A DNA stretch of 64,000 nt from NCBI GenBank assembly GCA_963555755.3, contig OY820905.2, positions 288,001 to 352,000 of the forward strand. The letters are read 5' to 3'. The notes below the pieces were generated by a model. It made no database searches, was not told the DNA's origin, and worked only from the letters and a program-made list of their open reading frames with translations. Numbering within the stretch: position 1 is the first letter of the stretch; each line of letters begins with the position of its first letter. Positions 54,881 through 56,360 of this stretch are shown one piece after another. Both the position numbers and the translations under genes were made by a program. Source of the stretch: Nitrospirales bacterium (GTDB taxonomy: Bacteria > Nitrospirota > Nitrospiria > Nitrospirales > UBA8639).

Positions 54881-55012
54881 TCCTTTGAATATTGGGAATG
54901 TTGAAAAAAGCCGCCAGCGGCGTTCTCGCCCTTTTGCCGTGCTCACGTACTATGAGTACGCTCCGCTCGTCAAAAAGGCTGCGGCCTTGCTGGATAGACC
55001 CTTCGGAAAGAC

Positions 55013-55987
55013 TCAGCAACCGTGATTAAAGTCAAGGGTTGAATATTGATTGGGGTTCCATGCTGTTTGGGTTTTGACCATCGTATTCAGAATGACCAGA
55101 AGTTTTCGCATACAGGCGGTGAGGGCCACTTTGGGTTTTTTCCCTTGTGCAATCAGGCGTTGATAAAATGTTTTGATGACCGGATTAAATCGTGATGCGG
55201 ACAGGGCCGCCATGTAGAGGGCGGCGCGGACTTGGGCCCGGCCTCCCCAGACCCTTCGGTTGCCGCGCACGTTTCCGCTGTCGCGGTTTAAGGGGGCAAC
55301 GCCCACCAGCGTGGCGATTTCTCTTCGGTTGAGCGTTCCGAGTTCGGTCAGGCTACTGAGGAGATTCATTGACAAAACGTTGCCCACCCCCGGCACACTT
55401 CGAAGGAGCGAATCTTTCTCTTTCCAGCCGGGGGTCTGTTTAATAATCTCGGCAATATGACCTTCGATTGTGTGGAGCCGTTTTTCCAGGGAGGCGATAT
55501 GGGCGTTGATATCTTTGCGGATCCATTTGGCTGCTTGCTGGAAGCGGGTTTTTTCCGCCGTCTGCATGGCAAGCAACTGCCGTCGCCGTGTCACCAAGGC
55601 CGTCAATTCCTGGGTGGTGGCGTCTTTCATGGGCCGGACCGCCGGTTGGATCGCCGCCCCGAAGCGCGCCAAGATTCGGGCGTCCAGGGCATCGGTTTTG
55701 GCCAGGGTGCCCAGGGCCTTGGCAAAGTCCCGCACCTGACGGGGATTCATGACGACCGCCGGCAACCCGGCGGTGGTTAAGGCCGCATACAGAAGCGTTT
55801 CCAGCCCCCCTGTGGCTTCCATCACGATGAGAGTGGGGTGAAGGACGTGGAGCCGCTCCACCAGCGCGGCGATGCCGGCGTCGTTGTTGGCTACCGACCA
55901 GGGAAGCGAATTGGCATTGTCTGCCACGTCTAATCGAGCTTTACAAATGTCGATACCGATAAACAATTCTGAGGATTTTGATTTCAT
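55013..55987 (-). CDS. IS110 DEDD recombinase
   Basis: GIDI, MEATG, KTDALDA, SVPGVG, GVAP..RDSG. Confidence 0.93.
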
Positions 55988-56224
55988 CGCTCTGTCTCCC
56001 AACCTTGTTGATACGGGCTTGGTGTCCCAGGCAACCGTTCGTCAGAGAAAGGGCATGACGACCTGCGCTGAGTCACGGGCTGATTCCCATAGGGCAAACG
56101 GTCTATCATGCCAGGATTCACAATACCGTGAGGGTACAGCCTTTTCCCTACGTTGGCTATGCCCTCTTCAGACAAGAGGCAGCTCGGGTGAGTTGGCCTA
56201 CAACCCTTCCTTGCATTATACAAG
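55017..56224 (-). mobile_element. IS110-family element (CT core, no TIR)
   Basis: Ends defined by comparison with empty sites at ~12929 and ~21131. Confidence 0.92.
55990..56205 (-). ncRNA. Predicted IS110 bridge RNA
   Basis: Two internal loops with target and donor guide matches; RNA ends approximate. Confidence 0.75.
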
Positions 56225-56360
56225 GGCATGCTTTTTTGAACATTCCCTCCCACTGACGATGCGTGGCTCATCTGGAGCTTTTTGGGGCTGTTGGAGTGCA
56301 ATATTCAACAGGCCCATATTGGACGAGTTGTACGTAGGAGAGGTTGCCTACTTGATTTAT

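Follow-up and report, generated by a model that had tools for sequence, protein, structure and literature searches.

An IS110-group element in a Nitrospirales genome carries a predicted IS621-type bridge RNA matching its target site in a MITE-like repeat

The closest described relatives of the element examined here belong to the IS110 family, for which a bridge-RNA mechanism was described in 2024. According to excerpts of the IS621 report, the RDG of that element forms a discontiguous pairing of nine RNA bases with seven bases of the donor, the donor loop follows the same rule as the target loop, and the element inserts into REP elements, as in 144 of 173 experimental insertions (PMC11208160). 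ISPpu9 and ISPpu10 of Pseudomonas putida (IS110 group) likewise insert into REP/BIME elements (PMC12288879), with a target stem-loop described as adding specificity for ISPpu10 (10.64898/2026.03.19.712850), and IS4321/IS5075 insert into the inverted repeats of Tn21 (reference in PMC11208160). The locus described below is a clear natural example of this mechanism and not a new type of system.

The window, i.e., the whole 64,000-nt stretch of Nitrospirales DNA that was analysed, carries on its minus strand an insertion sequence (IS) that, judged from both protein domains, the catalytic residues, the CT core, and the left-end RNA modules, is a member of the IS110 group of the IS110 family (Table 1). 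Read on that strand, its left junction is CATGCC-CT-TGTAT (core at 56224-56223) and its right junction is ACGGTTG-CT-GAGTC (core at 55016-55015). Terminal inverted repeats are absent, there is no target duplication except the core, and the left end measures 235 nt; a right end is absent, with the gene reaching the last base. An initial sequence-only reading of this DNA had given the junction and empty-target strings, all of which are present where it had placed them; the span it had named, 54894..56315, is real but comprises the IS plus the repeat that it splits, not the IS alone. In our assessment, the left end very probably encodes an IS621-type bridge RNA, predicted to guide the recombinase to the 11-base site TGCC-CT-GAGTC of a MITE-like repeat.

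Table 1. Features of the IS, its predicted RNA, and its occupied and empty target sites, in window coordinates
Feature	Position	Strand	Description
IS110-group insertion sequence	55015..56224	-	CT core at both junctions; 1,208 bp with one core counted
Transposase/recombinase gene	55013..55987	-	324 aa from ATG 55987; stop TGA 55015-55013
Target-binding loop module (module 1)	56050..56112	-	12-bp closing stem, internal loop, 4-bp hairpin between loop arms
LTG UGCCCU (predicted)	56091..56096	-	5' loop arm; equals left target plus core (TGCC-CT)
RTG GACUCAG (predicted)	56068..56074	-	3' loop arm; reverse complement of core plus right target (CT-GAGTC)
Donor-binding loop module (module 2)	55990..56047	-	Outer stem CUCUG/CAGAG; inner stem CCCGA/UUGGG, truncated in window copy
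LDG ACGGUUGC (DNA ACGGTTGC; predicted)	56031..56038	-	Equals left donor ACGGTTG plus first core base
RDG AU-CA-ACAAG (predicted)	56004..56012	-	Pairs discontiguously with CT-TGT-AT of right donor; 2-nt bulge
6-nt deletion (TGAACC)	56041..56042	-	Unique to window copy in alignment of 12 copies
-10 box TATAAT (putative)	56215..56220	-	Left end; TATNNT there in 37/39 distinct relatives
-35 box TTGACT (putative)	55030..55035	-	Right end; TTGAC[A/T/C] there in 26/39 distinct relatives
Split repeat, left part	56225..56247	-	Inner inverted repeat GGGAATGTTCAAAAAAGC, then left target
Split repeat, right part	54894..55014	-	Right target, widely shared core, inner inverted repeat
Empty target TGCCCTGAGTC	12929..12939	+	Intact repeat copy 12910-13055; CATGCC-CT-GAGTC intact at 12927-12939
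Empty target TGCCCTGAGTC	21132..21142	+	Another repeat copy
Empty target TGCCCTGAGTC	9887..9897	-	Repeat copy with different left "wrapper" (...AAAAAAGAATGCC...)

The IS110 identity proposed in the sequence-only reading was borne out at the protein level, with Pfam matches to PF01548 (E 3.5e-23) and PF02371 (E 1.8e-18) and a full-length alignment with the IS621 transposase (8wt6; E 5.1e-35, 124.5 bits); the best sequence match among solved structures was the ISCro4 transposase (9t56; E 6.4e-37, residues 8-316). Residues D13, E57, D99, D102, and S237 align with the IS621 catalytic residues D11, E60, D102, D105, and S241 (PMC11208158; numbering of the IS621 PDB chain is that of the paper plus 2), and S237-G238 align with S241-G242, which contain the conserved catalytic serine of the C-terminal Tnp domain (PF02371). 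A ribosome-binding site, GGGAG, lies 8 nt before the ATG, within the 3' arm of the donor module. At the other end of the gene, the TGA stop is formed by the core T and the GA of the target. We considered a target-supplied stop codon as a mechanistic feature and rejected it; among 47 distinct relatives only 6 have this arrangement, and the junction stop is therefore probably incidental, with the stop being a TGA inside the -35 box in 28 of the 47. In the circle, the transposase frame would continue without a stop across the entire left end (105-aa open reading frame, 56301..55984, minus strand) as far as a TGA overlapping its own ATG.

Across the genome (4.62 Mb in two contigs) the IS is present in 11 full and 2 truncated copies of 91.9-100% identity, with open transposase frames of 342-344 aa in 12 of them. 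All 13 copies occupy the same CT core of the repeat, in one orientation relative to it, flanked by ...AAAAAAGCATGCC and GAGTCTTTCCGAAGGG.... The sequence-only reading had held that the IS homes into this repeat and had named copies in unrelated targets as the contrary outcome; genome-wide mapping placed 0 of the 13 in such targets. The guide-specified 11-mer TGCCCTGAGTC occurs at a further 81 empty sites, 80 of them in repeat-like context, and is present in exact form at each of the three unoccupied targets that had been listed for the window. For the 20-mer, 100 shuffles of the window gave no match. That reading had also described the target as a palindrome; a stem is indeed present, but it is weak, with 4-5 bp around a 12-nt loop. 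A hammerhead-like motif in the target was considered by eye and rejected, with Rfam 15 giving no match there; over the empty repeat as a whole (12800-13120), Rfam 15 returned chance-level matches only (E > 2).

The host repeat is a non-coding unit of 146 bp whose ends pair over 9+8 = 17 bp and which, folded as DNA, has a z of -4.96. There are 56 near-full BLAST matches to it in the genome, together with about 100 copies of its left, target-bearing part and about 300 of its core. Small, non-coding, present in many copies, and bounded by terminal inverted repeats, it is MITE-like on these sequence criteria; inspection of the flanks of 40 copies revealed no target-site duplication, the left flank being a repeated module in its own right. 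To the left of most repeat copies lies a companion module that is more diverged (window 56248 to ~56318), and the composite repeat is enclosed by an outer inverted pair, TTGAATATTG / CAATATTCAA (window 56248-56318 and 54881-54893); the true repeat unit may be about 230 bp. Of the 41 related genomes searched, 33 contain the core (positions 46-146), and the full unit with target was found, among the matches listed, only in G000, G005, G006, and G011. In the relative G005, which is only 64% complete, a protein query returned no copy of the IS, though the full-length repeat is present. Upstream of the window IS (56360-56500, minus strand) lies an inverted-repeat element of a second kind, ~140 bp long with ends GGCACCTCTAAAAACC / GGTTTTTAGAGGTGCC.

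An RNAalifold consensus of the left ends of five relatives (76-100% protein identity) gave two modules, each consisting of a stem, an internal loop, and a hairpin, with predicted guides in the order LTG, RTG, LDG, RDG. This order, and its distribution over two internal loops as in the description of IS621, had been anticipated in the sequence-only reading, whose guide and closing-stem coordinates are all exact. The closing stem of module 1 contains GGCATGA / TCATGCC (from 56112 and up to 56050, respectively). Contiguous guide matches for LTG, RTG, LDG, and RDG are 6, 7, 8, and 5(+2) nt; in the 9-nt register of IS621, the LTG matches at 7 of 9 positions, with a contiguous match of only 6 nt, and at the second core base the LDG is mismatched (GCC vs GCT). 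For the RDG, the sequence-only reading had correctly picked out ACAAG (56008-56004) but had overlooked AU (56012-56011) and the 2-nt bulge between the two parts, such that the RDG is longer than proposed and, with its bulge, reproduces the nine-on-seven pairing reported for IS621. All four guide arms obey the published strand rules of IS621. Read with its 3' neighbours (window 56064-56074, plus strand), the RTG has the complement TGCGCTGAGTC, which departs from the full 11-nt target at a single position; the adjacent AGC(G) probably provides no extra target pairing, since it is conserved scaffold in the family.

Folded as a single sequence, the RNA was no better than shuffles, whether for the whole left end (z -0.99) or for the two modules (z -1.5), and Rfam 15 searched against 54500-56700 yielded chance-level matches only (E > 2), with no matching bridge-RNA family. 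The sequence-only reading had proposed folding the left end and building a covariance model of it, and such a model (R1), built on the two modules and searched in 86 loci of relatives with E up to 1, gave 75 matches, which came from Nitrospirota, Dehalococcoidia/Chloroflexota, cyanobacteria, and others; apart from two weak ones, all lie directly upstream of the transposase gene. Three locus pairs among the relatives were the same contig twice, and covariation was scored on 63 distinct rows. In these, 89.2% of cells were paired, vs 26.7-43.8% with the partners slid, both sides had changed in 24 of 31 pairs, and none of 500 shuffles attained the observed values; since the model itself served to fit the alignment, whose rows are kin, these figures overstate independence and flatter the structure somewhat. 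Helices 1-3 of module 1 were 82-97% paired, with compensatory changes. The scaffold is conserved with compensatory changes, and the loop arms are variable among relatives. Between the left end of the window IS and module 1 lie ~110 nt (window 56113-56222, minus strand) with hairpins conserved in close relatives (alignment A1, columns 46-94), and in Dehalococcoidia relatives this interval is only ~20 nt.

Among the relatives, guides match the flanks of their own locus much better than those of other loci. For this comparison, element ends were located without use of the target guides, the left end from a conserved CTTGTA/CTTGTG motif and the right end from the LDG heptamer with CT after it, in 73 rows (the 75 matches, less one without a donor loop and two weak ones, plus one intact copy of our own element), of which 67 were distinct. 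The reverse-complemented RDG pentamer did not serve to locate the left boundary in most relatives; the RD is TGTAT nearly everywhere regardless of the fifth RDG base. The mean exact run between LTG and left flank was 5.70 for own pairs (n=64) vs 3.33 for cross pairs (n=4142), with runs of at least 6 in 35/64 vs 174/4142; between RTG and right flank, the mean was 6.22 (n=55) vs 3.71 (n=3534), with runs of at least 7 in 37/55 vs 124/3534. By this measure, guide-flank matches exceed chance. Among close relatives, guide and flank change together, GCCCU going with GCC-CT, UUCCU with TTC-CT, and CAUUCU with CATT-CT. Each of the six LDG variants among the relatives is an exact match to its own right end. 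Where the LDG faces the core, however, its two positions are free to vary within the family, in contrast to what is published for IS621.

By analogy with IS621, the IS would excise as a circle. From the coordinates, the spacing TTGACT-17-TATAAT arises only when the two ends are joined, and no sigma-70-like promoter was detected ahead of the RNA in the integrated IS. The promoter would thus be split over the two ends and completed only in the excised circle, an arrangement whose sequence is conserved across the family and that agrees with the junction promoters described in the excerpted reports on IS621 (PMC11208158) and ISPpu9 (PMC12288879). Once created by the joined ends, this promoter would transcribe a bridge RNA of ~220 nt, starting near 56208 and ending around 55990, together with the recombinase mRNA; the RNA would then bridge the circle junction, as donor, and an empty repeat, as target, and the recombinase would exchange strands at the two CT cores. 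With 81 further empty sites, the repeat would thus constitute a reservoir of intergenic landing sites. The IS and the unoccupied repeat are both covered by contigs of four public runs (two RNA, two other), in which no circle junction appeared; this is no evidence of its absence. The contigs from the RNA libraries (two metatranscriptome runs) carry no information on start, end, or strand, and may include DNA.

The window copy differs from its sister copies by the loss of TGAACC in the donor loop, a deletion that the sequence-only reading had missed. It costs the inner donor-loop stem two G-C pairs and leaves the guides intact; the predicted fold of module 2 is altered, and the covariance-model score is 141.4 vs 163.8 bits. 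TGAACC is present in the contigs of all four public runs, and 10 copies in the genome have an intact RNA module (162.8-163.8 bits). The window copy likely depends on RNA supplied by these ten copies, since the IS621 bridge RNA is published to work in trans (PMC11208160).

Three other accounts of the locus were weighed against guided insertion. The IS could be a passenger, either with repeat and IS moved as a unit by a putative transposase of the repeat or with the IS copied between repeats by homologous recombination or gene conversion, and with no guiding involved. In line with this, homology between the window copy (c0) and copy c2 extends 94 nt leftward and 137 nt rightward from the IS and stops where the composite repeat has its outer borders; these borders, however, would equally fit two insertions into twin repeats. 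The occupied repeats are moreover diverse in structure (an internal deletion, a 20-nt insertion, other left wrappers), with 10 right-hand contexts among 12 of them, five of which are shared with empty copies, and left homology shrinks to ~20 nt in c1 and c9. The diversity of contexts, and their sharing with empty copies, thus argue for independent insertion events, and passenger movement would leave unexplained why relatives in other phyla sit at sites matching their own changed guides. We consider this account highly unlikely. It is also conceivable that the recombinase protein recognises the site alone, the left-end complementarity being incidental or serving only translation control. The overlap of the 3' arm of the donor module with the ribosome-binding site does allow for a structure that could also control translation, but guides and flanks change together across ~60 distinct loci, the scaffold is kept by compensatory changes while the loop arms vary, and in the homologous IS621 reprogrammed loops are reported to redirect recombination (PMC11208160), which together make recognition by protein alone extremely improbable.

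The remaining alternative accepts that the guided system is real but takes it to be extinct in this genome, its copies being immobile relics and the window copy dead. The missing 6 nt of donor-loop stem, the two truncated copies, and the lack of a circle junction in the public contigs all fit such a state. Against it stand the ten intact RNA modules, the 12 open transposase frames, and the at least 98.7% identity between the window copy and the 8 closest other copies, which indicates recent spread; extinction is therefore, in our estimation, improbable. Guided insertion into the repeat thus remains our preferred reading, and the sequence-only interpretation is, as a whole, supported.

Relatives in Dehalococcoidia insert at CCGTTCGTCCT|GAGCCTGTCGAAGGACGAACGG, in the 5' arm and loop of a REP-like hairpin with an 11-bp stem, the loop of which resembles the target of the window IS. 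This hairpin is often tandem or clustered near the IS (L030, L034, L042, L044, L064, L066-L068). Because these relatives use an 11-bp-stem hairpin with a similar loop, the weak palindrome at our locus looks like a decayed version of the usual target of the clade. A more speculative extension, which we regard as rather doubtful, is that one IS110 clade spanning Nitrospirota, Dehalococcoidia, and other phyla, with a near-constant RTG (..CUCAG), homes in each host into the 5' arm and loop of one type of hairpin, CCT|GAG(Y)C-N-CGAAGG, with IS and landing-pad hairpin being old partners that move together between phyla. Were this the case, the hairpin would be represented in Dehalococcoidia by the REP-like palindrome with its 11-bp stem and here by a decayed version within a MITE wrapper, and repeat wrappers would be selected or tolerated for carrying the landing pad.

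Ultimately, our analysis provides a well-documented natural bridge-RNA system for the environmental phylum Nitrospirota, with an internally complete census of 13 occupied and 81 empty sites and a resource of ~60 distinct natural guide/target pairs. For the clade, it points to a 7-nt RTG as the common state, a conserved split promoter, and a dispensable pairing between LDG and core, and the 6-nt donor-loop variant offers a natural test case for both the stem requirement and the action of the RNA in trans.

Compared with IS621 of Escherichia coli, the window IS shares the two protein domains, the catalytic residues, the CT core, and an RD starting with TGTAT, the protein relationship being distant (124.5 bits). 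Also shared, going by the excerpts of the IS621 report, are the location of the RNA within a long left end, the order LTG-RTG and then LDG-RDG over two internal loops, the discontiguous RDG, the split promoter, and homing into a dispersed intergenic repeat (PMC11208160). The two differ in the length of the RTG (7 nt here vs 4 in IS621) and of the contiguous LTG (6 nt vs 9), in the ~90 extra nt with conserved hairpins between left end and first module, and in the target repeat, which is a 146-bp MITE-like unit here and REP for IS621. Unlike what the excerpted report states for IS621, the LDG of the window IS lacks pairing to the second core base (PMC11208160). For ISCro4 (PDB 9t56), the comparison covers the transposase sequence. 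ISPpu10 and ISPpu9 share with the window IS the location of all copies at one position of a dispersed repeat, as far as the excerpted texts describe it; the target hairpin here has only 4-5 bp, unlike the stem-loop determinant of ISPpu10.

IS4321/IS5075, going by the title under which PMC11208160 cites them, share with our element an IS110-family landing site that a second mobile element harbours and spreads. They belong to the other subgroup, in which the RNA lies downstream of the gene and the subterminal repeats are long, and their host element is an autonomous transposon, unlike the MITE-like repeat here. The suggestion in the sequence-only reading that one parasite spreads landing pads for another thus fits this locus but was overstated, being already known for IS621, ISPpu9/10, and IS4321/IS5075. 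The literature on IS110 combined with MITE and "bridge RNA" yielded only one paper, the excerpted text of which concerns a MITE derived from ISPpu9 and not a MITE as target (PMC12288879). Homing of IS110 elements into dispersed repeats is thus already known, the MITE context is a small variation on it, and the picture set by the 2024 papers is unchanged by this Nitrospirota example.
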